Positions 7,856 through 32,760 of a stretch of 64,000 nt of DNA are shown one piece after another. A program made the translations under genes and the position numbers. Numbering within the stretch: position 1 is the first letter of the stretch; each line of letters begins with the position of its first letter. The notes below the pieces were generated by a model. It was not told the DNA's origin. It was given only the letters and a program-made list of their open reading frames with translations, and did not search any database. Where the stretch lies: the IMG/VR virus record IMGVR_UViG_3300020048_000058; one strand, 5' to 3'. This stretch comes from a virus.

Positions 7856-9433
7856 TCAGTTCCCTTGCCTAACTACAGAATAGATAAAATCAAACATTTC
7901 TGGATCGTTCTTAGCTAGGTAAATGGGGTTTCTGTACATTAATTCCAGTCCCATTGATAATACTTCTGTCCCGTAGGTATACACTTTCCCCATATAAGGA
8001 TGTAACCATTTATCAACTTTCGTTATTTCGCTTTTACTATAGCTCCGATTACCCGTCGCTTCTTTTAATGAAACGGCTGACTCCCCTGCGGTTCTTTTGT
8101 TGTAAAAATTCAACACTTTTCGACTAACTGTATTATTATTCCATTCAAGCCAATGCCCCATTTCATGTACTACCGTCGCTATAGAATTGTCGCCGGGAGC
8201 TATTACAACCCCTCCTGTATATTTCCCGTATTTTTCCTTTTTTTCCCTAAAAACTGGATCACCTCCAAAACTTCCAAAGTTCCCACCTGGATCAAACAAG
8301 CTTCTTATTTGATCAATATTGCCAGTGGAAACACTTGCCATAGAGGAAAAGCCATTTATGCCTACTAATTGAGAAAAAGCCTCAACACCTTTCTTGTAAA
8401 GAGCCTCTGATCCTTCGTCGCTTGCCTTGTAATAGACATCGACAACAATCGGGGAGTCAGATTTTACTATTTGTCTAGCTTCTTCCAATTTGTCTGATAC
8501 TGTCTTTTTGGCAGTTACAATCCGCTCCATTGTTGATTCCAGAAGAAAAGTTGCTTCCTCTGGGTTCTTTTTCGTTAGCTTGTTTACTCTCTTTTGTATT
8601 TGAGTCATCTCATCCAATAGACTTTCTATTGGTTTTTCCTCAAATAATGATACGGGCGTTTTTATCCCTTCAAATATTAACTCGTCACCAAAATCTTTTA
8701 TTAATTGCTCGCGCTTGTTTTTTGCTTCTGCCATCAATAATTTTTCTTGTTTAGCTTGCCTTTCTTCATAGGTTTCATAAAGATTAACCAGAGGAGGTGT
8801 CGTAACAATTTCCCTTGTTTTTTTCGTTTTATATTCTTCCCTTTTTCTTTGTACTTCCTCCCAGTTCTTTATTAACAAGGGTTCTGTTATTTTCTTGAGT
8901 TCATCAGCTTTTTTAAGAAATTCTTTTTCTTCTTCTGGTAAAACGCCTGATTTTATTGACCGTCTTAAATATTTCGCTCGTAATTCGTTTAATTTAAAAA
9001 GCCTGTCCTGAGAAAAATCGTCCTGAGCATTGGCTCTGCAACTTTTCTTGATATTGATACAGATACTTCCACAATTATAGGAAGTTGGCTTTACGCACTG
9101 TGCTTTCTCCCTTTTCGCTCCCCCTGCATCAATTCGGTAAGAATAACCTGCCGAGAAGTCTTCCCAATCCTTTAAATCAACACCCCGACTATCAATTCGA
9201 GGAGTAAATGGCTTATAAGTAACAGACCGCTTGTTAATCTCAAAGGAAAACACACGAGATCTGGTTAAGTCCCTAAACCGCCCTGTTATCTTTTCATTCT
9301 CCAGGGTTCCAGGATCGAAATCTAGCACAATGACCAGAGCATTATAGGCAAAAGGCATTGACAAGATTTGACCTATTGCCAATCTCATCTGAGCTTTTGT
9401 TGGAGCCGTGCTAGAGGTGAAAGATTGAACCAT
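7856..9433 (-). CDS. effector-family paralog: shared N-terminal module + 4-Cys motif + C-terminal HExxH metallopeptidase
   Basis: The N-terminus has APTKAQMRLAIGQILSMPFAYNALVIVLDFD...GRFRDLTRSRVFSFEI...YKPF...WEDFSAGYSYRID, followed by QCVKPTSYNCGSICINIKKSC. The C-terminus has VVHEMGHWLEW and the conserved tail KVDKWLHPYMGKVY...LSMGLELMYRNP...DPEMFDFIYSVVR. Confidence 0.8.
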   Translation of the reverse strand: MVQSFTSSTAPTKAQMRLAIGQILSMPFAYNALVIVLDFDPGTLENEKITGRFRDLTRSRVFSFEINKRSVTYKPFTPRIDSRGVDLKDWEDFSAGYSYRIDAGGAKREKAQCVKPTSYNCGSICINIKKSCRANAQDDFSQDRLFKLNELRAKYLRRSIKSGVLPEEEKEFLKKADELKKITEPLLIKNWEEVQRKREEYKTKKTREIVTTPPLVNLYETYEERQAKQEKLLMAEAKNKREQLIKDFGDELIFEGIKTPVSLFEEKPIESLLDEMTQIQKRVNKLTKKNPEEATFLLESTMERIVTAKKTVSDKLEEARQIVKSDSPIVVDVYYKASDEGSEALYKKGVEAFSQLVGINGFSSMASVSTGNIDQIRSLFDPGGNFGSFGGDPVFREKKEKYGKYTGGVVIAPGDNSIATVVHEMGHWLEWNNNTVSRKVLNFYNKRTAGESAVSLKEATGNRSYSKSEITKVDKWLHPYMGKVYTYGTEVLSMGLELMYRNPIYLAKNDPEMFDFIYSVVRQGN

Positions 9434-9441
9434 GATTTTAC

Positions 9442-9741
9442 TTAATAAACAATTTCAGACTCATCAACCACTTTCCCGTTAATTACCAAAGGAGGAGGAG
9501 CAATAGGTTGATCCATTACCGTCCCATCAAAGGTTTTTGCCAGTTCTGTTGCAATTAACCAATCGGGGTCGGGAGTTGCAGGGGAATTAAGCCAGAAGAA
9601 AGGCGAGTCCGGGTCTATGGCTGCTAGTTTCTCCATTGCTAAAACATTGTTCAGGATTGAGGCATAATGGGGCGTTGAGGATGTCCAAACTCCATTCTCA
9701 ATAACTGCCACTACACCATTGATTTTGACACGATAAGCCAT
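9442..9741 (-). CDS. hypothetical 99-aa protein wedged between two metallopeptidase paralogs
   Basis: The ORF is tightly packed, with a 1-nt gap to the upstream gene and an 8-nt gap to the downstream gene. No recognisable motif. Confidence 0.55.
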   Translation of the reverse strand: MAYRVKINGVVAVIENGVWTSSTPHYASILNNVLAMEKLAAIDPDSPFFWLNSPATPDPDWLIATELAKTFDGTVMDQPIAPPPLVINGKVVDESEIVY

Positions 9742-9742
9742 G

Positions 9743-10909
9743 TTAACCTCTTCTAACTACCGAATAGATAAAATCAAACATATCGGGATCTTGTTTAGCA
9801 AGTGCGACTGGATTCCTATACATTAATTCTAAACCCATTGAGAGAATTTCCGTTGACTTGTCAGGATAAACTTTTCCCATATAAGGACGCATCCATTTAT
9901 CAACCTTTGTTATTTCAGTATCTCCATACGATTTGATTCCGGTTGCGTCTCGCATTTTGACCGCTTTTTCTCCCTTTGTCCTGCGATTGTAAAACTCTAC
10001 AACTTCTTTCTTTATTTCTGGAACGGAGTATTCTATCCAGTGACTTAATTCGTGAATAACTGTACCAGGGTCATCATTCCCCATTGATACGGTTTTATCG
10101 GCACTATTGTAATAACTTCTCTTATCACCCTCTGGCAAGCCTTTAACCTTAACCTTACTCGTTAAACCAGGAATTGACACCATTAAAGACAGTGATTGAA
10201 TCCCCTCATCCCATCGGGATTTATTCTTTTTATCTTTTACTTCAATGTTAAGATTTGTAGGTAAGTCGACTTGAACTAATTTTCTAGCTTCACTTGAAAA
10301 CCTTTTGAAGTCTTCTGATGCAGCCTCTAATTCCCTTAATTTACCTTCACTTAAAATATCAGCTAATGGCGGGTTTGTTTTTAATAGTTTATCAATTTCT
10401 TTCTTTGTTCTTTTTATTAATTTGTCTAAGTATTTCTCTGGCTTTCCATCGTCAATAGCCTTTATAATAGCACTACCTTTGTGTTTAGAAGGATCAAATT
10501 TAGATATAAAATCCCCTGACATTTTATCTAATCGTCCTCTAACTTCTTTCGATTCTTCTAATAGCCTAACTTTTCTTTGTTCTGGGGTTTCTGGTTTATT
10601 TATTGGTTTCTCTTTAGCAAGCGAGGGAGTGTCGGGGGTGAAATCATTGATTGACTTCAAGTTATCGACACCAGGAGGAATAATAGGATTGGATTTAATA
10701 GCCTTTTCTTTTGCAGACCTTCTACTAATGGCAGTAGCATAATCAATTCCCATCGCTTTTAGCTTCTCAAGCCTATCCTTTGACCTAGAATCATTTGGAA
10801 CTATCCTGCAATTTTTCTTAACATTAATGCAAGATAGACCACAATTATAGGAAGTAGTCTTTACACATTGAGCTTTCTTTTCCCTCTTGTCTTCTCTATA
10901 TTTAATCAT
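9743..10909 (-). CDS. effector-family paralog lacking the N-terminal module: 4-Cys motif + HExxH metallopeptidase
   Basis: Starts MIKYREDKREKKAQCVKTTSYNCGLSCINVKKNC. It has VIHELSHWIEY and the same C-terminal tail (KVDKWMRPYMGKVY...LSMGLELMYRNP...DPDMFDFIYSVVRRG). Confidence 0.8.
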   Translation of the reverse strand: MIKYREDKREKKAQCVKTTSYNCGLSCINVKKNCRIVPNDSRSKDRLEKLKAMGIDYATAISRRSAKEKAIKSNPIIPPGVDNLKSINDFTPDTPSLAKEKPINKPETPEQRKVRLLEESKEVRGRLDKMSGDFISKFDPSKHKGSAIIKAIDDGKPEKYLDKLIKRTKKEIDKLLKTNPPLADILSEGKLRELEAASEDFKRFSSEARKLVQVDLPTNLNIEVKDKKNKSRWDEGIQSLSLMVSIPGLTSKVKVKGLPEGDKRSYYNSADKTVSMGNDDPGTVIHELSHWIEYSVPEIKKEVVEFYNRRTKGEKAVKMRDATGIKSYGDTEITKVDKWMRPYMGKVYPDKSTEILSMGLELMYRNPVALAKQDPDMFDFIYSVVRRG

Positions 10910-11991
10910 TTTCTCCTCACAACACTATAAATAAAGTCAAACATTTCAGGGTCATTCTTGGCTAGATAAGCAGGGTTTTCATACATCATTTCCATACCCA
11001 TTGAAAGGATTTCAGAGGCATTCTCGTATTCTTTACCCATATAAGGATGTAGCCATTTGTCCGTCCTCGTCTCCTCCTCCTCTCCATAAGCTGTGTTTCC
11101 CGTGACATCTCGAAGACTAACTAAATCCTCCCCTTTTGTTCGTTTTTTGTAAAAGTCCACAACCTCTTGCCTGATCCCCGGAACCTTTTCTTCTAACCAA
11201 TGACTCATCTCATGAACCACTGTACTAGAAGACTCAACCCCCATATATACATTATTGCTCCCCAAGTTGTAGAAACTCCGCCCCTGTGCTTCTGTAGGAG
11301 CGTCAACGATATTAATTGGGTCTTTTAAATCGGGGATGGAAACCATCCGAGAAAATGCTTCAACTCCTTCCTTGTGTGACGGGGAGCTTATTGAAGCGTT
11401 AATTTTGGTTGGGGAGTCTACCTCTATTAACTTTCTGGATTGAGTTAAAAAATCGGTAACTTCCTCTTTTATGACATCAAGCTTCTTATTCGCTTTTTGA
11501 GCTATCTCTTTTGCACCAGATGGGTTGATTTTGACGGCTTTGCTGATCTGTTTTTTGTAACCATTATGTATCTCCCAAAGTTTGACGTTAGGAGATGCCC
11601 ATCCTAGTACATTCGCAGTGGCTCCTTTTGTTTTCGACTTACCTTCAGATTCTCTAGATAATTTTAACAGTTGTTCTCGCTTACCTTTGGCTTCGGCTTG
11701 CAACCTTGCTTTACGCCTTGCGATGTTGATTTCATTACGGGATTCCCTTAATTCTTTGGCTTCGACTGCTCTCTTGCTTTCGATCACACTAATAAGTTTA
11801 TCGGCATTTCCCCCAAGTCTTTGAGCTTTTTTTGTACTGCTTTGAGCATAAAAAACAGCAAGTTTCTTTAACCTCTGAAGACGCGATCGCCCAAAAGATT
11901 CAGAAGGGACTTGCCGGCAATTTTTAGAGACGTTAATACAGGCGTTGCCACAGTTATAGGATGTTGGCTTTTCGCATTTGGGCTTCTTCAT
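10906..11991 (-). CDS. effector-family paralog lacking the N-terminal module: 4-Cys motif + HExxH metallopeptidase
   Basis: Starts MKKPKCEKPTSYNCGNACINVSKNC. It has VVHEMSHWLEE and the tail DKWLHPYMGKEY...LSMGMEMMYENP...DPEMFDFIYSVVRRK. Its stop overlaps the next start as ATGA. Confidence 0.8.
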   Translation of the reverse strand: MKKPKCEKPTSYNCGNACINVSKNCRQVPSESFGRSRLQRLKKLAVFYAQSSTKKAQRLGGNADKLISVIESKRAVEAKELRESRNEINIARRKARLQAEAKGKREQLLKLSRESEGKSKTKGATANVLGWASPNVKLWEIHNGYKKQISKAVKINPSGAKEIAQKANKKLDVIKEEVTDFLTQSRKLIEVDSPTKINASISSPSHKEGVEAFSRMVSIPDLKDPINIVDAPTEAQGRSFYNLGSNNVYMGVESSSTVVHEMSHWLEEKVPGIRQEVVDFYKKRTKGEDLVSLRDVTGNTAYGEEEETRTDKWLHPYMGKEYENASEILSMGMEMMYENPAYLAKNDPEMFDFIYSVVRRK

Positions 11992-12020
11992 TTCAGAACA
12001 TCACCACCGATCTAATTGGT

Positions 12021-12212
12021 TTATTTTATATTGATCTTTCTTTGAGACACCCCAGAGGTTTTATCTTTAGACTTGCCTTCTGCATTTAACTTGCTTTTCA
12101 ATGCCTTGACCTTGCGGGACGGGGCAGCAGATATCCCGTATTCAAGTTCAAGGTTATCAATTTCATCCATATCTACTAGGATTTCATCGTCTGTCTGAGG
12201 TTTGTTATTCAT
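12021..12212 (-). CDS. small hypothetical protein (63 aa) with a duplicated MNNKP start region
   Basis: The start codon and about 50 bp of upstream sequence are near-identical to the start region of ORF 12256..13656 (compare 12198-12247 with 13642-13692). The rest is acidic, then Lys-rich. Confidence 0.4.
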   Translation of the reverse strand: MNNKPQTDDEILVDMDEIDNLELEYGISAAPSRKVKALKSKLNAEGKSKDKTSGVSQRKINIK

Positions 12213-12255
12213 GTTTTTATTTTTAAATAGTGCCTATATTTTATCTTATTATATT

Positions 12256-13656
12256 TTATCCTAGTTTGGTTTTTTTCTCGTATTCCTTGACAAATGCCTT
12301 GGCTGATTTTTCTGACAGATGAAAATATTCAAGTTCATATCCATATTTAGCACCTTTTTCAATTCGTTTTTTAAACCCAACTGACTTATAAAACGGCACA
12401 GCACTTTCTAATGCCTCTAGTTTTATTTTCCCTTTAAATCCTCTTTTTACACTCTCTTGAATAGCATGATATATGATTTGTTTCCCCACTCCTTTTGTAT
12501 TGGTTATTATATTTGATGGATTAGTACCTAAATATTCTATATACATAGATTCTTTAGATCTATCGTTTCCTGTAAGGAAAAACCCCTGAGATTTCCCAGA
12601 TTCATCCTTTAAAAAAAACGCATCTTGTAATCCTGGCTTGGATTCTGTTGCCCAAGCTAGACCCTCCGCCACAGCATTTGAGTCATCAACTAAGTCTTTT
12701 TTTGCCTCCAGAACATCTCGCTCAATCACCTTGTTGCCATACTTTATAAGTTTATCATACGGGGACTGCTTTAATGCTTCCTCCGCAGTAGCAACGTACT
12801 TACTAGATTTATCAATCCATTCTTTTGCCGTTTTCTTTATCTCTTTCACGGATGCAATAGAAGGCGTTAATTTACCAACTTGTTGCCCTGGGGATTGCTG
12901 CTGTTTTTGTTTTTCTAGCTGTTTTTCTAGCTGTTTTTGTTTTTCTAGCTGTTTTTTTAGCTCCTCTTGTTTTTCTAACTCCTTTTGTTTTTCTAGCTCC
13001 CTTTGTTTTTCTAGCTCCCTTTGTTTTTCTCTTACCCTCTTGTCTCTTTGCCTTTCTCTTACACTCGAGAGTGCAAGAGAAATCTCCTTTTCTTCTTCAA
13101 GAAGATAGGACTTTCTTTCCTTTTGCTCCCCTGGCTTTATTCTGTCCAGTTTTTCGAGATACAGTTTTTTTAAATCGAGTAACTTATCAATCCGTTCCTT
13201 TGAAAAGTCATCATCAGCATCAGCACTGCAACTTTTCTTGATATTGATACAAATACTTCCACAATTGTAGGATGTAGGCTTTACACACTGGGCTTTCTTC
13301 CTTTTTACTCCCCCTGTATCAAAACGATAGGAATAACCCGACGAGAAATCTTCCCATACCTCAACATTCAAACCCGTGCTGTCAATTCGTGCCACGAAGG
13401 GTCGAGCCACGAAAGGTTTATAAACAACCGACTTCCTGTTTATCTCAAAACTAAACACACGGGCTCTAATAGCGTCCTTAAACCGCCCTGTTATCTTATC
13501 GCCGTTACTATCCCCTAAATCAAAATCAAGTACCATCACGGGCGAATTATAGGCAAATGGGAGCGATAACGTTTGAGCGATCGCCAGCCTCATTTGAGCC
13601 TCGGAAACCATAGCGTTTGGATTAATTTTCACTTCCATAGGAGGTTTGTTGTTCAT
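12256..13656 (-). CDS. effector-family paralog: N-terminal module + 4-Cys motif + (QRELEKQ)n coiled coil + C-terminal GNAT acetyltransferase
   Basis: N-terminal module: SEAQMRLAIAQTLSLPFAYNSPVMVLDFD...GRFKDAIRARVFSFEI. Cys motif: QCVKPTSYNCGSICINIKKSC. The C-terminus has the GNAT motif-A-like TKGVGKQIIYHAIQESVKRGFKGKIKLEALESAVPFYKSVGF. Confidence 0.8.
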   Translation of the reverse strand: MNNKPPMEVKINPNAMVSEAQMRLAIAQTLSLPFAYNSPVMVLDFDLGDSNGDKITGRFKDAIRARVFSFEINRKSVVYKPFVARPFVARIDSTGLNVEVWEDFSSGYSYRFDTGGVKRKKAQCVKPTSYNCGSICINIKKSCSADADDDFSKERIDKLLDLKKLYLEKLDRIKPGEQKERKSYLLEEEKEISLALSSVRERQRDKRVREKQRELEKQRELEKQKELEKQEELKKQLEKQKQLEKQLEKQKQQQSPGQQVGKLTPSIASVKEIKKTAKEWIDKSSKYVATAEEALKQSPYDKLIKYGNKVIERDVLEAKKDLVDDSNAVAEGLAWATESKPGLQDAFFLKDESGKSQGFFLTGNDRSKESMYIEYLGTNPSNIITNTKGVGKQIIYHAIQESVKRGFKGKIKLEALESAVPFYKSVGFKKRIEKGAKYGYELEYFHLSEKSAKAFVKEYEKKTKLG

Positions 13657-13677
13657 GTTCTTATCCTTAAATAGTGC

Positions 13678-14886
13678 CTATATTTTATCTTGTTTTAGTT
13701 TTTTCTCGTATTCCTTGACAAAGGCTTTAGCTGATTCTTCTGACAAATCGAAGTCCTCGGTGTATCCATCAACGCCTATTTTTGTTGTAAACCCAACTGA
13801 CTCATAAAAAGGTTCTGCGGAGGATAACGCATCTAGCTTTATTTTCCCTTTAAATCCTCGCTTCACACTCTCTTGAATAGCGTGGTATATGATTTGTTTT
13901 CCCACTCCTTTTGTATCGGTTATTATATTCGATGGATTAGTACCTAAAAATTCTATATACATAGATTCTTTAGATTTGTCATTTCCCGTAAGGAAAAAGC
14001 CTTGAGTTTTTCCAGATTCATCCTTCAAGAAAAACGTATCTTGTACTCCAGGCTCAGTTTCGCCAAACTCAATTGATTCTGCGGTCATACCTAGCCCAAA
14101 AGTTACTATCCTTGAGTCACCAACTAAACCTATTTTTTTCTCAAGAACCTTCCTTTCTATCCCTTGATTATTGCCATATTTTATGATTTCTCCAGGTGGA
14201 GACGCTTTTAACACTTTCTTTGCAATAGTGAGGTACTCCTCTGATTTGTCAAGCCATTCTTCTGTCGTTTTTAGCATTTCCTCTATAGATGCAACAGAAG
14301 GAGTTAACTTACCAACTTTTCGCACTGGAGGTTGTTGCTGTGCTTTAACTTCTTCCTGTTTAGCAGGTTTTTCCATTGGGGTCTCTGCTTTAGGCTTGGT
14401 TTGGGGCTTTTCTACAGTCGTTTTAGTCGTTTTTGCATAATCTTTCCCAACTACTTCTAACTTTTTAAGCCTATCTTTTATTGTGGGATCATCGGTTTTG
14501 ATTTTGCAACTTTTCATGATGTTGATACAGGCTTTCCCGCAGTTATAAGCCGTTGGTTTAACACACTGTGGCTTCTTATTGCCTCCTATCCCCGCATCTA
14601 CCCGATAGGAGTAGCCACTAGAGAACTCCTCCCAGTCATCTACGCTATCCATCCGTCCTGGGGTGTAAGGTTTAAAGGTTACTGACTGCCCTTTGATATT
14701 AAATGAAAAAATACGGGGACGGGTTGCATCCTTGAATTTGCCTTCAAACTCCCCTTGATCATTTACCGAAAAATCCAACATCACCACCGGAGCATTGTAG
14801 GCAAATGGTTGAGACAGAGTTTGGGCGATCGCCAACTTCATCTGTGGCTCGGTTGGCGTGGCATCTTTTCTAGTCGTTGAACTCAT
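13678..14886 (-). CDS. effector-family paralog: N-terminal module + 4-Cys motif + C-terminal GNAT acetyltransferase
   Basis: N-terminal module: TEPQMKLAIAQTLSQPFAYNAPVVMLDF...GKFKDATRPRIFSFNI. Cys motif: QCVKPTAYNCGKACINIMKSC. The C-terminal GNAT region is about 90 percent identical in the core to that of 12256..13656. Confidence 0.8.
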   Translation of the reverse strand: MSSTTRKDATPTEPQMKLAIAQTLSQPFAYNAPVVMLDFSVNDQGEFEGKFKDATRPRIFSFNIKGQSVTFKPYTPGRMDSVDDWEEFSSGYSYRVDAGIGGNKKPQCVKPTAYNCGKACINIMKSCKIKTDDPTIKDRLKKLEVVGKDYAKTTKTTVEKPQTKPKAETPMEKPAKQEEVKAQQQPPVRKVGKLTPSVASIEEMLKTTEEWLDKSEEYLTIAKKVLKASPPGEIIKYGNNQGIERKVLEKKIGLVGDSRIVTFGLGMTAESIEFGETEPGVQDTFFLKDESGKTQGFFLTGNDKSKESMYIEFLGTNPSNIITDTKGVGKQIIYHAIQESVKRGFKGKIKLDALSSAEPFYESVGFTTKIGVDGYTEDFDLSEESAKAFVKEYEKKLKQDKI

Positions 14887-14897
14887 GGTTAAATCTC

Positions 14898-17615: not shown

Positions 17616-17636
17616 GATTTTACTTTTTATAAATAG

Positions 17637-17732
17637 AAACCTTGTGAGCTAATCACAAATAAAAACCTTGTGAGTTAATCACAAATAAAAACCTTGTGAG
17701 TTAATCACAAGTAAAAACCTTGTGAGCTAATC
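17637..17732 (-). repeat. 26-bp tandem repeat x about 3.6, each unit carrying a TGTGA-N5-TCACA inverted repeat
   Basis: CCTTGTGAG(C/T)TAATCACAA(A/G)TAAAAA starts at 17640, 17666, 17692 and 17718. The last copy is the 3' end of ORF 17705..18124 (…SSQGFYL stop). The array lies directly upstream of the start of the triple-ART gene at 17615. Confidence 0.9.
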
Positions 17733-18638: not shown

Positions 18639-18641
18639 TTA

Positions 18642-22612: not shown

Positions 22613-22987
22613 ATGACTATTACAAAAAGAGAGTACCCTTCTAAGAAAACGTTAGGATCTGGTGCATTGGCTCCCTATCGCGCTCTCGGTCGGTCAATTC
22701 GACGGGATCTTATAAATGCAAATCTTGGGATGATGGAATTTAGCGAGAAAAGTGGGTGGGACTGGCAGACAATTCGGAGGATTTTAATGGGGGAGCGGCG
22801 GACGGATTTTATAGAACTGTTGATTATTGCTTTGTTAATTTCTGAGGATCAATCGGAAACGGAAAGACTGATCCTCACCTGGACTAAGGAAACTTTGAAG
22901 ATTATTGAGGAAGGAATCCCCCAAGAAATTAACCCAGGTCTTGTCGATAATCTTGTCGAGATTAACGAAGAGAGCCCTTTAGAATAG
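22613..22987 (+). CDS. HTH (XRE/Cro-like) regulator candidate
   Basis: 124 aa. The segment LINANLGMMEFSEKSGWDWQTIRRILMGERR has a helix-turn-helix pattern. It is the only plus-strand gene in the block and diverges from the head operon. Confidence 0.45.
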   Translation: MTITKREYPSKKTLGSGALAPYRALGRSIRRDLINANLGMMEFSEKSGWDWQTIRRILMGERRTDFIELLIIALLISEDQSETERLILTWTKETLKIIEEGIPQEINPGLVDNLVEINEESPLE

Positions 22988-23381
22988 CAATAATCTCCTG
23001 ACGATTCCGTTGGCTTACTCCTAAAAATTGACGTTTAGGCATTTTCTTGGTGCCATTTTGCAAATAGGAGCCATAAGGTAATGGAGTCCCTACCTCAACC
23101 CTTCCTTTTTCAATCCGATATCGAATAGAAGATCGCAACAATCCTTGGCGTTGTAGTATTTGCATAATAAAACCCCGACTAGCCTTGTATTTAAGGGTTG
23201 ATGGGGCTAGGTGTTCCCATTTCTCCCCATAAGGACTCTGTTCCTTCTGGAAGTTCTCATCGGTTGATGCCACCATAAACTGCCCGACTTTATGCAGTTC
23301 AGGTGTGAGGTTCTGAAACTTTCTGATTAATTTATTGAGGTAATTTTGGACTTGGTTAGCAACGAATTTTAGGGATAGCAT
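22962..23381 (-). CDS. virion morphogenesis protein (Mu gpG / HK97 gp10-like)
   Basis: 139 aa. The segment SIRYRIEKGRVEVGTPLPYGSYLQNGTKKMPKRQFLGVS matches the family signature V.VGT..PYA..HQ.G....P.R.FLG as I remember it. Confidence 0.6.
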   Translation of the reverse strand: MLSLKFVANQVQNYLNKLIRKFQNLTPELHKVGQFMVASTDENFQKEQSPYGEKWEHLAPSTLKYKASRGFIMQILQRQGLLRSSIRYRIEKGRVEVGTPLPYGSYLQNGTKKMPKRQFLGVSQRNRQEIIAILKGSLR

Positions 23382-23465: not shown

Positions 23466-26400
23466 CTAACCTTGCGATCGCACCTCTTGAACTTTTATCG
23501 CCTTTTGTTTTATCGCCTTTTGTTTTATTGACTTTTGTTTTACTGCCTTCTGGGGTTGAGTAACTTCAGGCTTTAAGTCGTTAGGGGAACTATCAGAATC
23601 ATCTACTTTATAGCGTTTACCATCTCGGATGACGTGGGAAATCTCATCAAGAGTAGCCACACCTTCAACATCGTAAGGCTTCCCGTTTAAAGAGGTTCCT
23701 CTATTTCTAACTTTTACATTTTTAATATTAACTTTTAAAACTTCCCCTCCATCCGCAATTTTATAATCAGACGGATTACTCAATCTTTCTGAAACGTAAG
23801 ACTTAACAAAGAGTTTATCCCCAGGATTTAATGTTTTTCTTAAATCCTTGCTTGGTACACTTCCAGACAACGGCGGCGGAACATCCTTCGTTTTCATCAC
23901 GCCTTTTAATTTATCGTAATCCTTTTCGTAATCAGGGCTATCATAATATTCATGCTCTTTATAGCCTTTTTCTTTCATCTTATTAAGAACATAAACCCTC
24001 GCCTCTCCTTCTGTTTCATAGTCCCCTTTTATTGCTTTTTTTCGTCTCTCATTTATAAAGTCTTCATTATCAACAACAGGCTTAAATCTATCGACTTGCG
24101 ATTGATAATGACTTTCGTACCCTTTTGGAACAGTATTATTTTTTATTGCAGTCGAATATTCGTTATAATTATCTCTGTGAAAATCAGGAAGCCCCCGCAT
24201 TAATGCCATAGATACTTCTTCCTCTGCTCTTTTAGGATCTTTCGACTTAGCAATAATATCCTTATATTGCTGATCAACCGATTTCTCGGCTTTTTCTTTT
24301 GCATCTCTAGCATCCCGTGCAGCAACTTCTTCTTCTGCACCTTGTTTTGTCATCCCATACTGAGCCTGTACTATTCCAACTTTAACTGCGTGTAATTGTT
24401 CGTTATTTAGATCCTTGTTTTTTAAGTCTACTGATTTGATTAAATCAGTCATTTCTACTGCACTATTTTCAGCCTGTTTGAGTGTTTCATCCATCTCTCG
24501 ATAGCCGTATTTAAACGTATGGAATCGCAAGCCATTAGGAATATGTGTTACTGCATAGCCATCTATCGTGTCTGTCTGTTTTCCTGTCCACTGTTCTGCT
24601 CTATAGTTAGGGTGAATAGCTAAATCTCCCCTTGCCATAGCCTCTATCTTGGCTTCACCCGCCCCTGTTTGTATGGTTATTTCTGACTTTTTAAAACCCT
24701 TTTTCTCTAATCTTTTTACCAATAATTCCGGTACGGGTTTCATTTTTGATTCAGTTTTAATATTTTTAATATCTATTTTGCCACGATCACCAGGTTCCTC
24801 TACCCCTGTTGAATTTGGGGATGGTTTGGGTAGCTTTCCACTATCAATCATTGAATTGATATCGTCAATGTTAACGATTTGGGATTTGCCCTGAGTGATT
24901 TCTTTAACTAACCTTTTTGCTCTATTTTCTTTTTCTTTATCATTTTTAGCAAAAAGACTAAACGACATAGTACCATCGGATTTGTGCAGCGTGAGTTGTC
25001 TTTTTTCTCCATCATAACTGTCTGACACTTTTGCACCCACGATGACATCTTCCTTGCCATTAGATGATGTAACTTTCCAGGGAATACCAGTAACATCATT
25101 GTGAGCGGTTATATCCTCAGATTTGCCAGAGTAACGCCTTTTAGCATTCTCAGACCTCCATCCTTCAGACAATCCCATACCTTTTTCTAATTCAATTTTA
25201 TCGGGTTGTTTATTGTTATATTCCTGTTGTTCTTTAGTTGGCGAATTAGCTGAACGTTTCGCAATATAGTCAACTGTAGCAACATTTTTAAAATCTACAG
25301 CAACACGATAATCTGAGCTAGTTTTTTTAGTTTTTTTAACTAATTCCTCAGCCTCTAATAAAGCCTTTCCTTCTGGGGTGTTTGAATCTATAAACAACTT
25401 ATACCCCGCACCACCAAGGTATTCTCTATTAAGCGTGTATTTGGTTTCCCCTTTTTCGTACTGTTCCGCCAGAAAATCCGTAGCTTCTTTTTCAGTTAGT
25501 TTTTTTGACGTTCCGCCCTGTCTAGCTGACAGTTTTGGATCGTTTAATAGATACATCCCCCTGTCATGTTGCAATCTGTATCTCTCTTTTTCGTTAAGCA
25601 ATATCTGTCCAGACTTAACCTTTCCTATATCTGCGATCGCTCTTTCAGACATGGCGGAATTTGGGGATGGTTTAGGGTCTGATTTAGTTTCTAGCTTAGA
25701 TTTGTACTTATCAGATAGAAAATCTACGGCTTCTTTTTCTGTTAGCTTTTTCGCGTACAACCTCCCACCCTGTTGAACCGATATGTTTGGATTGCTTAAA
25801 CTAAATAGTTTATCGTTCCCTCCTGATGTTGACAATCTATATCCTTCTTTTGGATTAAGCAATATCTGTCCAGACTTGATTCTCTCTATATCTGAGATCG
25901 CTCTTTTGACTGCATCAGAATCGGGCGTCGGTTTTGCGATTGCTCTTTGTGCTACAGAGGGAATAGGGGCTGGCTTGGGTTCGGGTGTTGGTTTTGCGAT
26001 CGCCTCAACTTCCGGTGTCACCGTCACAACATCTGGTTTTGGTTGAGCTTTCTGCAACTTCTCAACCCGTGTCATCACATCATTGGCAAATTTTTCGGCT
26101 TGCTCTCTTTTCTTGAATCTATGACTCGGAGCCATGTTGCCATTTGGGGGTTCTCTCAGTACGTCCCCATTCTTATTGATAACTTGCCAACCCAAAACGG
26201 GATCGGCGGTTAATTTTAAATCTCTATAGGAATCAAGGTCGTCTGTTAGGTTAACTGATTTTTTGCCAATTTTTAAAGCGAGTTTTAACGGGGTGAGGGT
26301 ATATTTGTCTTCGGATGGCTGTTTTACAATGTCGGTGACGGGGACTTCTGTTTTATTGGGAATGGGGGTGACTTGCTTGATTTCTTCCGGTGGCTTTGGA

Positions 26401-26924
26401 GTTAACTTATTACCCTCTTGCTTCTTGGTTGGATCATCCTGAACGGCTTTAAATTTCCCTGCCATCGCCTTAACCTTGTCTATCTTTTCCTGAGATGGTT
26501 TATCGGTGGGATCTGATTTGCAGTTCTTATTCAACCCGATGCAAGCCTTCCCGCAGTTATAGGAGGTATTGCCACACTTAGGTTTTTCTTTCCTCTTGGT
26601 TTTAGCTGCGTCATACCGATAGGTGTACCCTTTAGAAAATTCTTCCCATGCCACTAGATCGATATCCGCGCTGTCTATTCTTTTCTGGGTAAACGGCTTA
26701 AAACTTATGGAGTCATCAATCTCAAATTCAAATATACGGAGTCGGGAAGCATCCTTAAATCTACCCTTGATCACATTCCTGTTGCCTACCTCAAAATCAA
26801 CGACAATTACGGGGGAGTTGTAAGCAAATGGAAGGGATAGGACTTGCGCGATCGCTAACTTCATCTGAACTTCGGTGGGAGCCGCGTTAGATTGGTTTAC
26901 TTTAATAGCGGGAGTTGTAATCAT
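23466..26924 (-). CDS. giant effector-family paralog (1152 aa): N-terminal module + 4-Cys motif + long multi-domain body of unknown function
   Basis: N-terminal module: APTEVQMKLAIAQVLSLPFAYNSPVIVVDFE...GRFKDASRLRIFEFEI. Cys motif: KCGNTSYNCGKACIGLNKNC. There is an internal ~80-aa duplicated domain (…IKSGQILLN.KE.YRL…KKLTEKEA.DFL…). The C-terminal ~330 aa is homologous to the C-terminus of 28299..31187 and ends in a KQK(S/A)IKQK repeat. Confidence 0.8.
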   Translation of the reverse strand: MITTPAIKVNQSNAAPTEVQMKLAIAQVLSLPFAYNSPVIVVDFEVGNRNVIKGRFKDASRLRIFEFEIDDSISFKPFTQKRIDSADIDLVAWEEFSKGYTYRYDAAKTKRKEKPKCGNTSYNCGKACIGLNKNCKSDPTDKPSQEKIDKVKAMAGKFKAVQDDPTKKQEGNKLTPKPPEEIKQVTPIPNKTEVPVTDIVKQPSEDKYTLTPLKLALKIGKKSVNLTDDLDSYRDLKLTADPVLGWQVINKNGDVLREPPNGNMAPSHRFKKREQAEKFANDVMTRVEKLQKAQPKPDVVTVTPEVEAIAKPTPEPKPAPIPSVAQRAIAKPTPDSDAVKRAISDIERIKSGQILLNPKEGYRLSTSGGNDKLFSLSNPNISVQQGGRLYAKKLTEKEAVDFLSDKYKSKLETKSDPKPSPNSAMSERAIADIGKVKSGQILLNEKERYRLQHDRGMYLLNDPKLSARQGGTSKKLTEKEATDFLAEQYEKGETKYTLNREYLGGAGYKLFIDSNTPEGKALLEAEELVKKTKKTSSDYRVAVDFKNVATVDYIAKRSANSPTKEQQEYNNKQPDKIELEKGMGLSEGWRSENAKRRYSGKSEDITAHNDVTGIPWKVTSSNGKEDVIVGAKVSDSYDGEKRQLTLHKSDGTMSFSLFAKNDKEKENRAKRLVKEITQGKSQIVNIDDINSMIDSGKLPKPSPNSTGVEEPGDRGKIDIKNIKTESKMKPVPELLVKRLEKKGFKKSEITIQTGAGEAKIEAMARGDLAIHPNYRAEQWTGKQTDTIDGYAVTHIPNGLRFHTFKYGYREMDETLKQAENSAVEMTDLIKSVDLKNKDLNNEQLHAVKVGIVQAQYGMTKQGAEEEVAARDARDAKEKAEKSVDQQYKDIIAKSKDPKRAEEEVSMALMRGLPDFHRDNYNEYSTAIKNNTVPKGYESHYQSQVDRFKPVVDNEDFINERRKKAIKGDYETEGEARVYVLNKMKEKGYKEHEYYDSPDYEKDYDKLKGVMKTKDVPPPLSGSVPSKDLRKTLNPGDKLFVKSYVSERLSNPSDYKIADGGEVLKVNIKNVKVRNRGTSLNGKPYDVEGVATLDEISHVIRDGKRYKVDDSDSSPNDLKPEVTQPQKAVKQKSIKQKAIKQKAIKVQEVRSQG

Positions 26925-27710: not shown

Positions 27711-28360
27711 TTAAATTTCTTCGGTTTCTACATAGAATATGCCATTTTTCTCAGTAACACTCTTAACTTTGTGCTTGGCATCTTTTGAAACAATAACTTC
27801 CGATTCTTGAGGCTTTAGTCCTACATCCTTAATTGATACCCCGTCTTGTTTTTTGCCTTGATAATAACAGGATAAGCTCCTTCTACATATTGAGACAAAG
27901 ATGGATTTTCTTTGTAGCTAGCTTTTGAAAAATCATAAGCTACTTTGTCATCAGAAGTCCATGAAGCATGAGCTTTTTGGTTGTCTAAAACGCCGTTTTC
28001 ATCCCCTTTTAACCACGTCTCAACTTCTTCTCTACTATAGAAAAGAATCCCTCTACTTACATCCCCATCATAGGGTGTCATGCTTTTCATGAACCTATTG
28101 ATATTTTCCTCGTTTTTATTTGGCCTCCCATCTTTTTGATCGTCTCTGACCTCATCGGAGTCTGTGATCCATCTTTTGACTGATTTAATGATTTTCTCAG
28201 CCTCCTCTATAGTAATGTTTTCCCCTTTTTTAACCATCGCCTCGTAGTATTCTTGTGCGTTTTTAGGGGTTCCGTCGTGGGCTCCATCTCCTATTAATTT
28301 AGGAGTCTCTTTGACTATTTCCTCTTTCGGGACTAAAGGCGATTCTTGTGGCGATCGCAC
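27711..28360 (-). pseudogene. fourth ADP-ribosyltransferase domain, split over two frames and out of frame with the upstream 962-aa ORF
   Basis: ORF 27821..28360 carries VSRGI (Arg) and AHASWTS (S-x-S). The Q/E-x-E strand (PQESEVIVSKDAKHKVKSV…VETEEI stop at 27711) lies in another frame. The shifts map to short G-runs, at about 28360 (one extra G relative to the paralog at 23480) and about 27841-27844. Confidence 0.7.
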
Positions 28361-31187
28361 CCTCCTGAACTTTTATTGTTTTCTGTTTTACTGACTTTTG
28401 TTTTACTGACTTTTGTTTTACTGCTTTCTGGGATTTGAGGGCATCAGGCTTTAAGTCGTTAGGGGAACTATCAGAATCATCTACTTTGTAGCGCTTACCA
28501 TCTCGGATGACGTGGGTGATGTCTTTCATTGGAGTCTTAGACTCAAATGCGTTTTGTTGACCGCTATATTGCTTTTTAGCCACAACATTCGTGACAGCAA
28601 CCTTAGTTACTTCTCCCCCTTCCCTGATGTTGTACCCAGTAGGAATATTATTATTTCCCGAACTCCCCATAGAGCCATAGGTGTTTTCTTTCACCAACAA
28701 TTTATCCCCTGGGCTTAAAGTTTTCTTTAATTCACTGCGCGGGATATTGCCAGATAAAGGTGGGGGAAGTTCGTAATTATTCTTAATTATTGATTCTATT
28801 TTACTTCTTTTTTCGGTATATTCTGGGCTGTCGTAAAATTCATAACTGTTTTTATATTTCCCTTTCAATGACCCCATATAAGCCATTACTTCGGCTTCTG
28901 TTTCAAAGTCGCCATTGACTGCCTTCTGTCTTCTCTCGTTAAAGAATTGCTCTGCTTCAATAACGGGTTTATATTGATCAATATGTTCCTGATAACGTTT
29001 TTCATATCCTGGCGGGACTATTCCACTTGCCTGTGCTGCTAAATATCGCTCATAGGTTTGTTTTTTGTAATCCAAAGTGCCGGATAAAGCCTCTGCTATG
29101 GCTTCCTCTGTTCCCTTTGGATCTTTAGAACTGGCAATAATATCCTTATATTGTTGATCAGCCGATTTAACAGGGGGTTTGTCAGTCTTGGTTTTAGCGA
29201 TCACTCTTTGTGCTACAGCAGGAATAGGGGCTGACTTAGGTTCTGATAAAACAGATTCCGTTCCTCTCGATTCTCTTAACGCCTTAATTTCACCATCTAA
29301 GGAAGTTGCCCGACTTTCAGCATCTTTAATTTTGGTCTGTAATTTAGCTATTTCGCCCTTAGCACGATCTGAAGACTCTACAGCCTTTTTATCGTCTGCC
29401 AAATCTCTAATATCTTTGTTGATCTCATTAATCCTTGTCGGGATGGATACTGTCCTTTCTGGGAGATTAGATACTGGATTTCTGACTTCTACCATGTCAT
29501 TCGGGTTTCGCATCGTAAGGAGCCTAAGCTCATTATAATTATTGTCAATCGCCGTTTCACGAAATTGTTTTGAATTATTTAATATCACAGCCTCGTTATA
29601 AGATTTTTCTTGTTTTAGGCTATTTAACTCTTTTTGTACCCGTTGTTTTTTATCAAATAATTCATAGTCCTTGGCAACGGTTTTGTTAATACGTTGCATG
29701 ATTGGTCTAAAGTTGGGGTGAGCTTTTTCTAAGTTTTCTTGTGTTAACGGGTTGAGACTATCTGCTTTATTAAGAATCCTAGAAATAGATCCCGTAATCT
29801 TTTTGAATTCAACATTGCCACCACCACCTAATCTATCTAAATTATCCGTCATTTCCAACCATTCATTTAAGTTGATATCTTTAGGAATCCCTTCCCCTGA
29901 TTCTAATTTACTTACAACTTGCTTCCACTGCTCAAGATTTTTTGAGACGGCTTCTTTATCTTTTGATGCAATATTTGCCCGTGACTCTCTTACTAAACCA
30001 ACAATATCAAGTGTATTGTTAGATTCTGATTTAGCGATCGCATTCTTAGCTTCTGTTGGTGCGGGGGTTGGTTTGGGGTCTTCAGGTAGTGATAGACCTT
30101 TCCTTTTTCTTGACTCCTGAGCCCTTTCTTCAATCCGAGTATTTTCAAATTCTTCTGTAATTTTCTTTCTAGTCTCAGGGTCTAGTTTTCTAAGTCCTTT
30201 CTCTGTAACATTTTTAGATTCTAAAAAGTCAGACCATTTTTTGTCAGCATTAATTGTTGTTTGACTTGGTTCTTTTTTCTGATTTTTTAGTTGACCGCCT
30301 GACGAATTAATTTCAATTTGTTTCCCATTATTTAAAAGGTCGTTAATTCTTCCCCCTAATTCTTTATCAACAGATACAGCATTAGACCCTCCTAGTCCAA
30401 CAGCTTCTCTAAGTCCGTTAATTCTAGCTACAGCAGTGGCGTGGGGGATTTGATATAAATTAGCGATAGACCGAGATGATAAACCTTCTGCTTCATTTTT
30501 TAGTCCGTTTTGATACTGGTGGTATTTTTGATAAGCTGTTTCTGCTAAACTTTTATTCAACTCATTTTCCGCGATAGCTTTCTTTAGTGTATCGCGCATT
30601 TTATCTTCGTTCGCTAGTGTCGGTTTTGTTTCCGGTGGCTTTGGAGTTAATTTATTATCTTCTTGCTTCTTGGTTGGGTCATCCTGAACGGCTTTAAATT
30701 TCCCTGCTGCGGCTCTGAGTTTATCGACTTTTTCTTGGGAGGGTTTATCGGTGGGATCTGATTTGCAGTTTTTGTTCAACCCAATACAGGCTTTGCCACA
30801 ATTGTAGGAGGTATTGCCACACTTAGGTTTTTCCTTCCTAACGGTCTTAGCTACATCGAATCGGTAGCAATACCCCCTTGAGTAGTCTTCCCACGCCACA
30901 GGGTCAACGTCGATGCTGTCCGTTCGTTTCCAGGTAAACGGTTTGAAGGTAATGGAATCCCCAATCTCAAACTCAAAAACACGGGATCTAATGGCGTCCT
31001 TAAACCGTCCTTTGATGATGTTTTTGTTGCCTACTTCAAAATCCAGAACGATAACCGGAGAGTTGTAGGCAAATGGCATCGACAAGACTTGAGAAATACC
31101 AAGTTTCATCTGCACTTCTGTTGGGGCAGTATCAAGGCGGAGGGGTGTTTGATAACTTGAAATTGTGATCATGTTTTTAAAAATCAA
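28299..31187 (-). CDS. giant effector-family paralog (962 aa as tracked): N-terminal module + 4-Cys motif + long body, originally fused to the ART domain downstream
   Basis: N-terminal module: APTEVQMKLGISQVLSMPFAYNSPVIVLDFE...GRFKDAIRSRVFEFEI. Cys motif: KCGNTSYNCGKACIGLNKNC. The first ~185 aa and the last ~330 aa are homologous to 23466..26924. The middle is unrelated. Confidence 0.8.
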   Translation of the reverse strand: MIFKNMITISSYQTPLRLDTAPTEVQMKLGISQVLSMPFAYNSPVIVLDFEVGNKNIIKGRFKDAIRSRVFEFEIGDSITFKPFTWKRTDSIDVDPVAWEDYSRGYCYRFDVAKTVRKEKPKCGNTSYNCGKACIGLNKNCKSDPTDKPSQEKVDKLRAAAGKFKAVQDDPTKKQEDNKLTPKPPETKPTLANEDKMRDTLKKAIAENELNKSLAETAYQKYHQYQNGLKNEAEGLSSRSIANLYQIPHATAVARINGLREAVGLGGSNAVSVDKELGGRINDLLNNGKQIEINSSGGQLKNQKKEPSQTTINADKKWSDFLESKNVTEKGLRKLDPETRKKITEEFENTRIEERAQESRKRKGLSLPEDPKPTPAPTEAKNAIAKSESNNTLDIVGLVRESRANIASKDKEAVSKNLEQWKQVVSKLESGEGIPKDINLNEWLEMTDNLDRLGGGGNVEFKKITGSISRILNKADSLNPLTQENLEKAHPNFRPIMQRINKTVAKDYELFDKKQRVQKELNSLKQEKSYNEAVILNNSKQFRETAIDNNYNELRLLTMRNPNDMVEVRNPVSNLPERTVSIPTRINEINKDIRDLADDKKAVESSDRAKGEIAKLQTKIKDAESRATSLDGEIKALRESRGTESVLSEPKSAPIPAVAQRVIAKTKTDKPPVKSADQQYKDIIASSKDPKGTEEAIAEALSGTLDYKKQTYERYLAAQASGIVPPGYEKRYQEHIDQYKPVIEAEQFFNERRQKAVNGDFETEAEVMAYMGSLKGKYKNSYEFYDSPEYTEKRSKIESIIKNNYELPPPLSGNIPRSELKKTLSPGDKLLVKENTYGSMGSSGNNNIPTGYNIREGGEVTKVAVTNVVAKKQYSGQQNAFESKTPMKDITHVIRDGKRYKVDDSDSSPNDLKPDALKSQKAVKQKSVKQKSVKQKTIKVQEGAIATRIAFSPERGNSQRDS

Positions 31188-31240
31188 TTAATTCTAGTTT
31201 TTTGATTGGATCTGTTTTAGTTTACTTTTAAAATATTAAT

Positions 31241-32329
31241 CTAGTTCCACTGAAACAACTCTTCTCCTTTCTCCGTTACCGTGAATATTTTACCATTGGT
31301 TTTAAGATTTTCAAAATGACCATCTAATTGCTGTTGAGAAATTCCATTTTTTTTGGCATAATCACTTAACAACTTATTACGTTTAATTGCTACAACCCCC
31401 TGTAGTTCCTGTTTTCTTTTTTCTTCGTTATAAAATTCTTTAAAATCTTTCTCGAATTTAGTATAAGATATCTGTTTTTCTTTGATCGCTTTTTGTCCTG
31501 CACCCAAGTCTTTTGTTTTAGAAGATTTGGTTGCAGGTTGTTTTTTCTGCTCTTTGGGTGTCTGTCCTCCAGCCCAAGATAATAATTCTTCTCCTTTCTC
31601 CATTACTGAGAATATTTTTTTATTATCTTTTAATTTCTCGAAATAATCCTCTAACTGTTCACGGGGAACATTGTACTTCCTTTCGGCAATATCTAACATC
31701 TGCCGGCGTTTGATTGCTACAACACCTTTTAATTCTTGCTTCCTTTGCTCCTCAAAATAAAGGTCTTCAAAGTCGCTCTCAAAATTAGAGTAAGAAAGTT
31801 TCTTGTCCTTTGATTCAGAAACTTTTGGTTCCTTCTGTTTTTCTCCCCCTTTTTGCCCATCTTTAAAATCCTTCGCCAGAGACTTTAGTTTATCTATTCT
31901 ATCTTTTGAGTTAGCATCATCGGGGTTGCGCCTGCAATTTTTCTTAATATTTATACAAGATTTACCACAATTATAAGATGTGGGCTTCACGCACTGCGGC
32001 TTTTTTTTAGCCCCTCCGGGTGTATCAAAGCGAAAGCTATAACCAAGGGAAAAATCCTCCCATTCCTCCTCATTGTCCAGTCGCCCAATCTTAAAAGGGC
32101 TAAAACGGATATCGTCCAAAATCTCGAAGCTAAACACACGAGGACGATCAGCATCCTTAAACCGTCCCGTAATTTTACCATCATCACCCACCTCAAAGTC
32201 CAAAACAATAACCGGAGAATTATAAATTGATGGGAGGGATAGTGTTTGGGCGATCGCTAACCGCATCTGTTCCTTGGTAGGAGCAGCATCAAAGCTAGGG
32301 GGATTTTGACGGTTTAAGGTAGTGACCAT
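31241..32329 (-). CDS. effector-family paralog: N-terminal module + 4-Cys motif + two copies of an ~85-aa domain
   Basis: N-terminal module: APTKEQMRLAIAQTLSLPSIYNSPVIVLDFE...GRFKDADRPRVFSFEI. Cys motif: QCVKPTSYNCGKSCINIKKNC. Then come two repeats: LSYSNFESDFEDLYFEEQRKQELKGVVAIKRRQMLD…KIFSVMEKGEELLSW and ISYTKFEKDFKEFYNEEKRKQELQGVVAIKRNKLLS…KIFTVTEKGEELFQW. Confidence 0.8.
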   Translation of the reverse strand: MVTTLNRQNPPSFDAAPTKEQMRLAIAQTLSLPSIYNSPVIVLDFEVGDDGKITGRFKDADRPRVFSFEILDDIRFSPFKIGRLDNEEEWEDFSLGYSFRFDTPGGAKKKPQCVKPTSYNCGKSCINIKKNCRRNPDDANSKDRIDKLKSLAKDFKDGQKGGEKQKEPKVSESKDKKLSYSNFESDFEDLYFEEQRKQELKGVVAIKRRQMLDIAERKYNVPREQLEDYFEKLKDNKKIFSVMEKGEELLSWAGGQTPKEQKKQPATKSSKTKDLGAGQKAIKEKQISYTKFEKDFKEFYNEEKRKQELQGVVAIKRNKLLSDYAKKNGISQQQLDGHFENLKTNGKIFTVTEKGEELFQWN

Positions 32330-32381
32330 TGTTTTTGAGAATAGATTTACCGAGTCTTTCTGTACGGGTGCAGGTCGGGGT

Positions 32382-32606
32382 TTACCAGTCTTCCGGCCCT
32401 TGAGCTACAAAACGCTTGGCACGTTCTCGTTTTTCCTCTTCTGTCAAATCGTCATAACTTCTTTTTGGATATTTCTTAGCCATTCTTTTATCAAATTCCT
32501 GTAATGTCTCCCCTTCCCCTAAAGCATCCTCATCTTCGGATACAACAGCAGGAGGAACGGTTTTAATTTTTTTTTGTCCTTCAACAGCAGTTTTTTTGGC
32601 TTTCAT
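32382..32606 (-). CDS. small charged hypothetical protein
   Basis: 74-aa ORF, Lys/Glu-rich, with no motif. Confidence 0.45.
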   Translation of the reverse strand: MKAKKTAVEGQKKIKTVPPAVVSEDEDALGEGETLQEFDKRMAKKYPKRSYDDLTEEEKRERAKRFVAQGPEDW

Positions 32607-32656
32607 AATTGATTTTCGTTTTTAATGCTAATAGGTCTATTATACTTTGTTTTTGC

Positions 32657-32760
32657 TTAATTAAGTTTACTTCTACCAATATCAAAATGTGCTTGGGTGA
32701 TCGCTAATTTCGCCTGGATTTCTGTTGGCGGAGCATCAAATCTTAATTTTGTCCATAAAG
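32657..32760 (-). pseudogene. relic of the effector-family N-terminal module (no start codon, early stop)
   Basis: The minus-strand translation gives …RFDAPPTEIQAKLAITQAHFDIGRSKLN stop. The DNA (…TTGGGTGATCGCTAATTTCGCCTGGATTTCTGTTGGCGGAGCATC) aligns with the start of 31241..32329 (…TTGGGCGATCGCTAACCGCATCTGTTCCTTGGTAGGAGCAGCATC). Confidence 0.55.

Follow-up and report, generated by a model that had tools for sequence, protein, structure and literature searches.

Why would a phage keep, among the genes for its virion, nine related genes that share a beginning and end in unrelated enzymes? The 64,000-nucleotide stretch of viral DNA analysed here (IMG/VR virus record IMGVR_UViG_3300020048_000058, below called the window) raises this question, and a first-pass annotation had answered it with a virion-packaged, co-injected effector arsenal. 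We found that the family is best explained as virion-packaged, probably ejected, basic cargo proteins of a cyanophage clade, a reading to which we give a probability of roughly 0.68. The shared N-terminus is probably a new loading tag for a known effector-packaging strategy, because homologues are abundant in the purified virions of a related phage. The window itself comes from a relative of the Planktothrix agardhii cyanophage PaV-LD, which was the only match in a megablast search with positions 12000-33000 (89% identity, 48% query coverage), and the head genes of the two share 86-98% protein identity.

All nine family genes were confirmed on the minus strand between 7856 and 32329, within the virion block, and a six-frame profile scan of the window returned exactly nine members. 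As the first-pass annotation had stated, they flank the capsid and scaffold genes on both sides: cluster B (31241-32329, 28299-31187 and 23466-26924) lies just downstream of the portal gene, and the six members of cluster A run from 14898-17615 down to 7856-9433. Together they sum to ~17 kb, about a quarter of the 64-kb window, rather than the ~19 kb or nearly a third estimated before. BLASTP revealed a common N-terminal region of ~150-160 amino acids (aa; 44-82% identity, E 1e-36 to 3e-92) in seven open reading frames (ORFs), namely 7856-9433, 12256-13656, 13678-14886, 14898-17615, 23466-26924, 28299-31187, and 31241-32329. In these seven, an alpha/beta domain of ~95-100 aa precedes a basic four-cysteine (C4) unit. 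The other two ORFs, 9743-10909 and 10906-11991, start at the C4 unit. For the 28299 ORF, alignment with the homologue P0004 indicates that the true start is likely the ATG 15 nt inside the TTG.

The C4 unit follows the motif K-K-P-x-C-x7(6)-C-G-x2-C-I-x5-C and continues into an S-K-(D/E)-R-(L/I)-x-K-L helix. Its four cysteines and the glycine were invariant in all nine window members, and these are the only cysteines that each protein contains, including the one of 1152 aa; only the 28299 ORF has one more, C107. Across 135 homologues, two of the four cysteines were invariant in both alignments, while the other two were invariant in one and at least 90% conserved in the other. The spacing, C-x7-C-x3-C-x6-C, differs from that of CxxC pairs.

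An AlphaFold2 model of the module, built from a 52-sequence alignment, reached a predicted local distance difference test score (pLDDT) of 86 and a predicted template-modelling score (pTM) of 0.77. The model has an alpha-beta4-alpha topology (helix 19-30, four antiparallel strands 40-78, helix 87-95), followed by a Lys-rich linker, three short strands bearing the four cysteines (118-134), and a long helix (139-159). The linker, which carries R-x-D-A, is its only low-confidence segment. The C4 knuckle is probably zinc-binding.

We then compared the module with known domains. Pfam, NCBIfam, and PDB sequence searches gave no match, and Foldseek searches of the PDB with a pLDDT-75 and the pLDDT-86 model gave nothing better than E 0.1 (best value 0.19, with the pLDDT-86 model). 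Against BFVD, Foldseek matched only PaV-LD, phage CL131 (see below), and a Nodularia phage. The matches to phrog_16619 ('minor head protein') and phrog_33618 are uninformative on function, as these PHROGs are built largely on the PaV-LD paralogues and on their ADP-ribosyltransferase (ART) and MuF neighbours. No member matched the MuF profile (PF04233) at E<0.1, and the MuF region of CL131, used as a phmmer and jackhmmer query, found nothing in the window or in PaV-LD, so that a MuF domain hidden in the long bodies of some members is unsupported. A literature search found no published description of the module. Because the Foldseek, Pfam, NCBIfam, and PDB sequence searches were negative, the module, as modelled, is an undescribed domain, distinct from tail tubes, Ig domains, and MuF. 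The earlier observation that it resembles no known delivery domain was therefore upheld, and neither a tail-tube nor an Ig-like fold, which had been named among the outcomes that would overturn the effector proposal, was matched in the PDB by the pLDDT-86 model.

Downstream of this constant part, the C-termini differ. Three members of cluster A end in a putative zincin-like HExxH metallopeptidase: the ORF at 7856-9433 has the full module (the assignment comes from BLASTP, the HExxH alignment, and a weak zincin match), the one at 9743-10909 starts at YRxD and the C4 unit, and the one at 10906-11991, which matches phrog_33618, starts at the C4 unit. H75, E76, H79, and several downstream glutamates of this domain were invariant in 14 homologues; profile matches to zincins were weak (M90, E 8e-4; MPTase-PolyVal, E 0.22), and a PDB sequence search gave none. 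Two further members, at 13678-14886 and 12256-13656, carry a predicted GNAT acetyltransferase after the module and C4 unit; in the latter, a K/E/Q-rich coiled linker comes before it. They match Acetyltransf_10 at E 3e-4 (21 bits, against a Pfam cut-off of 23.6), and their family profile matches GNAT structures (E 4e-4), with the match confined to the region of motif A. In the ORF at 14898-17615, the module and C4 unit are followed by three predicted tandem ART domains of the R-S-E type (PF03496, E 6e-5 and 22.9 bits, where the cut-off is 23.4 bits; XopAI, E 6e-5). The three repeats carry YRG, then SWT or SWS, then EDE, QDE, and EDE, corresponding to the R, S-x-S, and E/Q-x-E motifs.

The three members of cluster B also begin with the module and C4 unit. 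At 23466-26924 these are followed by a body of ~990 aa, whose final ~270 aa share 50% identity with the 28299 ORF; at 28299-31187 by a body of ~790 aa that originally ended in an ART, now out of frame; and at 31241-32329 by a duplicated ~85-aa domain. The duplication is visible in the sequence, and a weak SAMD1_WH match makes a winged helix possible. Each window member thus has one cargo type, with the triple ART being one type repeated. The C-terminal assignments as ART, GNAT, and zincin hold as predictions from motifs together with sub-threshold or weak profile matches, and this is also the support for the three HExxH, two GNAT, and three ART domains named in the first-pass annotation.

The same annotation had counted one frameshifted ART as a separate kind of C-terminus. 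We found instead that it originally formed the C-terminus of the 28299-31187 gene and is now disrupted by two frameshifts (27714-28360, minus strand). The piece at 27821-28360 covers ART profile positions 2-156, and the piece at ~27714-27917 covers positions 147-195 and retains E-S-E. Many relatives have the module, body, and ART in a single ORF of 885-1194 aa (e.g., 1173 aa in locus L020 and 1194 aa in L044), and PaV-LD has only one frameshift, at another place than those of the window. The upstream junction contains a GCGATCGC (HIP1) site. A programmed frameshift joining body and ART was rejected as the main explanation, because the shift sites differ between the window and PaV-LD, the second shift breaks the ART, and most relatives have one continuous ORF. 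The window frameshifts are either real decay or sequencing error. The start-less relic of the N-terminal module proved to be real: it lies in an open stretch at 32657-32818 on the minus strand that contains …FDAPPTEIQAKLAITQA… and reads ...LRFDAPPTEIQAKLAITQA before the sequence diverges and reaches a stop.

Are such proteins part of a virion? The answer comes from CL131, an Aphanizomenon siphophage whose structural genes resemble those of PaV-LD (PMC6293099). Profile searches identified the module in its gp045 (E 2e-12), the C4 unit only in gp044 (E 3e-10) and gp047 (E 1e-8), and five C4 units with one full module in gp048, a protein of 1811 aa (E 2e-22). All four are among the 23 structural proteins that liquid chromatography-tandem mass spectrometry detected in CsCl-purified CL131 virions; gp048 had the top score of all, with 175 peptide-spectrum matches (PSMs) and 54.6% coverage, and gp045 had 123 PSMs on 453 aa (PMC6293099 SI Table 5). 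Since gp044 and gp047 contain only the C4 unit, this unit and its helix appear to be the minimal element. The CL131 homologue of the DUF2213 protease/scaffold, gp038, is also kept in mature virions (90 PSMs; PMC6293099). For PaV-LD, no ORF-level virion data were found in the papers that cite it. The proposed effector arsenal is therefore supported in part, namely by experimental virion association in the relative CL131.

The portal protein of CL131, which was also found in its virions, offers a second link. It has 1393 aa and joins the portal to InPase, then to a stretch similar to the module's beta part (E 1e-5), and then to MuF, so that a module-like segment and MuF coexist in one protein. 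The C-terminus of a portal faces the capsid interior. From this and the fusion we infer that the module is tied to the inside of the head.

Charge also sets the family apart. Eight of the nine window members are basic (isoelectric point (pI) 8.65-9.5, Lys 10-15%), and the C4 region has a pI of 9.2-10 in every one. Most of the remaining ORFs in the structural block are acidic (pI 4.2-6.2), the neck protein at 22962-23381 (pI 10.4) being the only other basic one. CL131 gp044 to gp048 have a pI of 9.1-10.2. This basic charge parallels that of the internal proteins of T4.

We next surveyed related phages for the same N-terminus with other C-termini, as had been suggested. In PaV-LD, the family comprises ORF061R, 065R, 078R, 079R, 080R, 081R, 083R, and 085R, together with the ART ORFs 062R and 066R. 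Its cargo set differs from that of the window: there are no GNAT genes, ORF085R is an additional Cys-ART gene, 078R and 079R stand where the window has the single triple-ART protein, and 083R is truncated to a module-only stump at the place of a module with HExxH. As these repertoires differ although the head genes are nearly identical, cargo turns over between phages. In a further 43 IMG/VR loci from PaV-LD-like phages, the cargo also includes ParB-like domains, and single proteins carry one to three ARTs.

Word-indexed homology searches returned close relatives only, and an exhaustive hidden Markov model search of 1.84 billion representatives was needed to see the wider family. It found the module in 193 clusters at E<=1e-3 and in 105 at E<=1e-10. 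The module is mostly N-terminal; ~18 proteins have at least two units, and in ~14 the C4 unit alone stands at the N-terminus. Long proteins such as CL131 gp048, P0059, P0060, P0064, P0112, P0113, and P0120 repeat the C4 unit every ~300-450 aa, which suggests bead-like cassettes of unit and cargo that fuse and split. Pfam scans covering 135 proteins of the wider family showed InPase PF18823 (9), ART (5), PARP-like, GNAT, ParB_N, Pkinase, DnaJ, LRAT/NlpC-P60, DUF676/lipase, pentapeptide, LPD1 (PF18796, E 2e-12), and Rho_N domains. We took the cargo variety from these Pfam counts; single-linkage clustering of the C-terminal tails was uninformative, because Lys/Glu/Pro-rich linkers and repeated units merge unrelated cargo. 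The constant module with exchanged enzymatic C-termini thus extends well beyond the window, with at least 12 Pfam cargo types.

Gene position is conserved too. In four distant contigs, the family genes stand in the same two places as in the window. In L004, L005, and L054 they directly follow the protease gene, the capsid gene, and three small head-completion genes, and in some of these they directly precede a tape-measure-like gene of ~2000 aa. In L053 they directly follow the portal gene, whose end is overlapped by an ORF with the order InPase, module, and a third part (X). L005, L053, and L054 have three to five paralogues each. The module also occurs in contigs whose next gene encodes a podophage GP4-type fibre protein.

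These observations can be joined in one scheme. The clade would comprise the PaV-LD-like and CL131-like phages and wider relatives, with a common head module of portal, DUF2213 protease, and PF09950 capsid protein. Most likely, the shared N-terminal region is an incorporation device that docks each protein into the assembling particle, with the C4 unit and helix as the minimal loading element. The docking partner may be the acidic DUF2213 protease/scaffold, perhaps through electrostatic contact, or the vicinity of the portal. The variable C-termini would be the payload: ARTs, GNATs, and zincin peptidases here, and ParB, InPase, kinase, esterase, NlpC/P60-like, and pentapeptide domains in relatives. 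This payload would accompany the DNA and, upon infection, be set free in the host, where it could modify host proteins, counter defences, or aid envelope crossing. Cargo would be exchanged fast by domain shuffling and by gene fusion and fission, giving separate genes here and multi-unit polyproteins elsewhere, and we speculate that the HExxH paralogues process multi-unit proteins.

Several points weigh against packaged and ejected cargo. Virion detection concerns the CL131 homologues, and the window phage is known from its genes. Cluster A (7856-17615) lies between the neck and tape-measure genes, where siphophages usually have the genes for the tail tube and chaperones, and no gene for a tail tube could be recognised anywhere in the window or in the PaV-LD structural region; searches with two candidates, 32834-33226 and 35391-36047, gave no informative match. 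The number of PSMs per residue of CL131 gp045 equals that of the capsid protein, a value that would also fit a major tail protein. Module-alone homologues seem to exist (e.g., P0128, 154 aa), and the module may thus do something by itself instead of acting only as a tag. The GNAT and ART Pfam scores are slightly below the curated cut-offs, and the frameshifted ART indicates that not all cargo is maintained. The gene position, the gp045 abundance, the missing tube gene, and the module-only homologues would all fit a module that is a structural part of the tail or neck (e.g., a subunit of the tube, the tail lumen, or a decoration) and whose C-termini are displayed rather than delivered. Since no tube gene was identified, a tail role is possible for some members, notably CL131 gp045. 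As an account of the family, however, we consider it quite unlikely. The pLDDT-86 model matches no tail tube, Hcp, Ig, or other PDB fold; the module also follows portal and InPase and occurs beside podophage GP4-type fibre genes; the nine paralogues are divergent, with unrelated C-termini, and strongly basic compared with the other structural proteins. ART needs NAD+ and GNAT needs acetyl-CoA, and these enzymes can therefore act only inside a cell.

The opposite possibility, that the proteins are never packaged and serve as late-expressed intracellular take-over, anti-defence, or inter-phage toxins whose N-terminus serves for oligomerisation or as a pro-domain with a regulatory or inhibitory function, is very unlikely. 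It would account for the shuffling, which resembles that of bacterial polymorphic toxins (Rhs, CDI, MafB) in the constant N-terminal part, the swapped C-termini, and the start-less relics, and metallopeptidase (MPTase) paralogues could process the pro-forms (PMC5512222). Yet purified CL131 virions contain all four of its members, each detected with a high score, and the genes lie within the head operon in every phage examined. No cognate immunity genes were seen in the window, where paralogues abut or overlap (13656/13678, 14886/14898, and 10909/10906) and 9442-9741 is the sole small interposed ORF. The earlier comparison with polymorphic toxins thus stands for the protein architecture and fails for the paired immunity genes, and delivery would be by a virion instead of through a secretion system. 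Two other proposals concern the R-x-D-A/Lys-rich/C4 unit and agree with packaging. It could be a punctuation mark cut by the prohead protease or by HExxH paralogues, with the alpha/beta domain discarded like the capsid-targeting sequence (CTS) of T4. The regular recurrence of the unit in long proteins (five times in CL131 gp048), the low model confidence of the linker before the knuckle, the three MPTase paralogues in the window, and the processing of P1 DdrB before packaging (PMC5512222) are consistent with such cuts. On the other side, gp048 was seen at 54.6% coverage across its 1811 aa. We regard the cuts as unlikely; they would go together with packaging and not compete with it. Better placed, though still tentative, is the idea that R-x-D-A, Lys-rich linker, C4 knuckle, and helix (~50 aa) form a self-sufficient, portable 'zip code' that would load any downstream protein throughout the clade and release it in the host, with the alpha/beta domain as an accessory and with cassettes of unit and cargo that fuse and split.

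With packaged, probably ejected cargo as the preferred explanation, we compared the family with known systems. Polyvalent proteins are effector-domain proteins encoded among the virion genes of portal-terminase phages and predicted to be packaged and injected (PMC5512222). The window genes likewise lie among the virion genes of a portal-terminase phage, and the domains predicted in the family share the polyvalent vocabulary of zincin MPTase, ART, ParB, InPase (also portal-fused), GNAT, and LPD1 (PMC5512222). The module and C4 unit, in contrast, are not among the described polyvalent-protein domains (PMC5512222). The window effectors, moreover, are spread over nine genes, each with its own copy of the module or C4 unit, and not joined in one giant polypeptide; two or more unrelated effectors per polypeptide occur only in relatives (CL131 gp048, P0059, P0064, and P0127). 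Toxins of temperate phages fused to MuF (SPP1 gp7/Mu gp30) were reportedly described by Jamet et al. in 2017. They resemble the window family in the constant N-terminus, the variable C-terminal toxin or enzyme, the gene position near the portal, and ART as a frequent cargo. The window family differs from them in lacking PF04233, in its different, unrecognised fold with a C4 knuckle, and in having many paralogues per genome, not one. MuF fusions have also been treated elsewhere (PMC5512222, PMC9503650).

T4 Alt and the internal proteins IPI-III are likewise basic proteins that include an R-S-E ART, and they are loaded by an N-terminal signal and injected with the DNA (PMC9503650, PMC7697877). 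Their cargo also varies between related phages. The T4 CTS, however, is a peptide of ~10-20 residues removed by the prohead protease, whereas the window family has a region of ~150 aa that is folded in the model. The Dar anti-restriction proteins of P1 (DarA, DarB, DdrA, DdrB, and Hdf) are also several head-internal proteins encoded together, and P1 has a protein with ParB and MPTase; unlike the window family, they have no shared N-terminal module. Incorporation of the P1 Dar proteins is hierarchical through DarA and Hdf.

Head-packaged effectors are already known: T4 has Alt and its internal proteins, P1 has Dar, and MuF-toxin fusions and polyvalent proteins are further cases. For ARTs, MPTases, ParB, and InPase, packaging in the head is an accepted concept through the polyvalent proteins and MuF fusions (PMC5512222, PMC9503650). 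Known loading devices are few, and cyanophages have been thought poor in such proteins, a paucity of polyvalent proteins having been reported for cyanobacteria (PMC5512222). What is new is a widespread module, present in 193 clusters without database annotation, that organises up to nine cargo genes per genome. The host here is a bloom-forming, toxin-producing cyanobacterium. If our explanation is correct, it would name, and assign a function to, the most extensive group of 'hypothetical' structural proteins in PaV-LD, CL131, and related phages, infection would begin with host proteins being ADP-ribosylated, acetylated, and proteolysed at once, and the rapid cargo turnover between near-identical phages would be explained. 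The tag could also serve to engineer foreign cargo into cyanophage particles. The zip-code version would in addition represent a new modular grammar of protein delivery in phages.

The remaining genes of the virion block are all on the minus strand. The portal protein (33398-35296) has a C-terminal InPase domain (PF18823, aa 501-625). Between the two clusters lie the genes for the neck protein (22962-23381), the DUF2213 prohead protease/scaffold (20927-22480, pI 4.57), a cement-like protein (20097-20927), the major capsid protein (PF09950, 19124-20077), and four small head-completion genes (17705-19121). The protease/scaffold has a very acidic poly-E/M tail, in which E/M-rich repeats were detected (TRF, 21446-21541). 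Within cluster A, the small ORF at 9442-9741 (minus strand, 99 aa, pI 4.2) sits between two HExxH paralogues and is 92% identical to PaV-LD ORF082R. It matched no family, and its product might act as a chaperone or inhibit the adjoining peptidases.

Beyond cluster A, the tape-measure gene (1445-7072) encodes a protein of 1875 aa, compared with 1584 aa in PaV-LD, that contains zero cysteines. At 1763-2181 it contains a 15/45-nt tandem array in which a P-P-(V/I)-I-(E/D/N/K)-T-like pentapeptide is encoded ~28 times. PaV-LD is said to have been published as tailless, which contrasts with this long tape-measure protein. A homing-endonuclease-like ORF (431-1165, plus strand; phrog_314, E 3e-15) adjoins the 3' end of the tape-measure gene on the opposite strand. 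The 64-kb window has 24 copies of the cyanobacterial HIP1 octamer GCGATCGC, against less than one expected from base composition, and the octamer's 20 copies in L004 and 14 in L005 hint that both of these distant contigs are from cyanophages. Finally, a 26-bp unit at 17631-17732 (3.9 copies, 94% identity), found nowhere else in the window, corresponds to the end codons and stop of the ORF at 17705-18124 (…ISSQGFYL*), re-duplicated three times before the ATG of the triple-ART gene.

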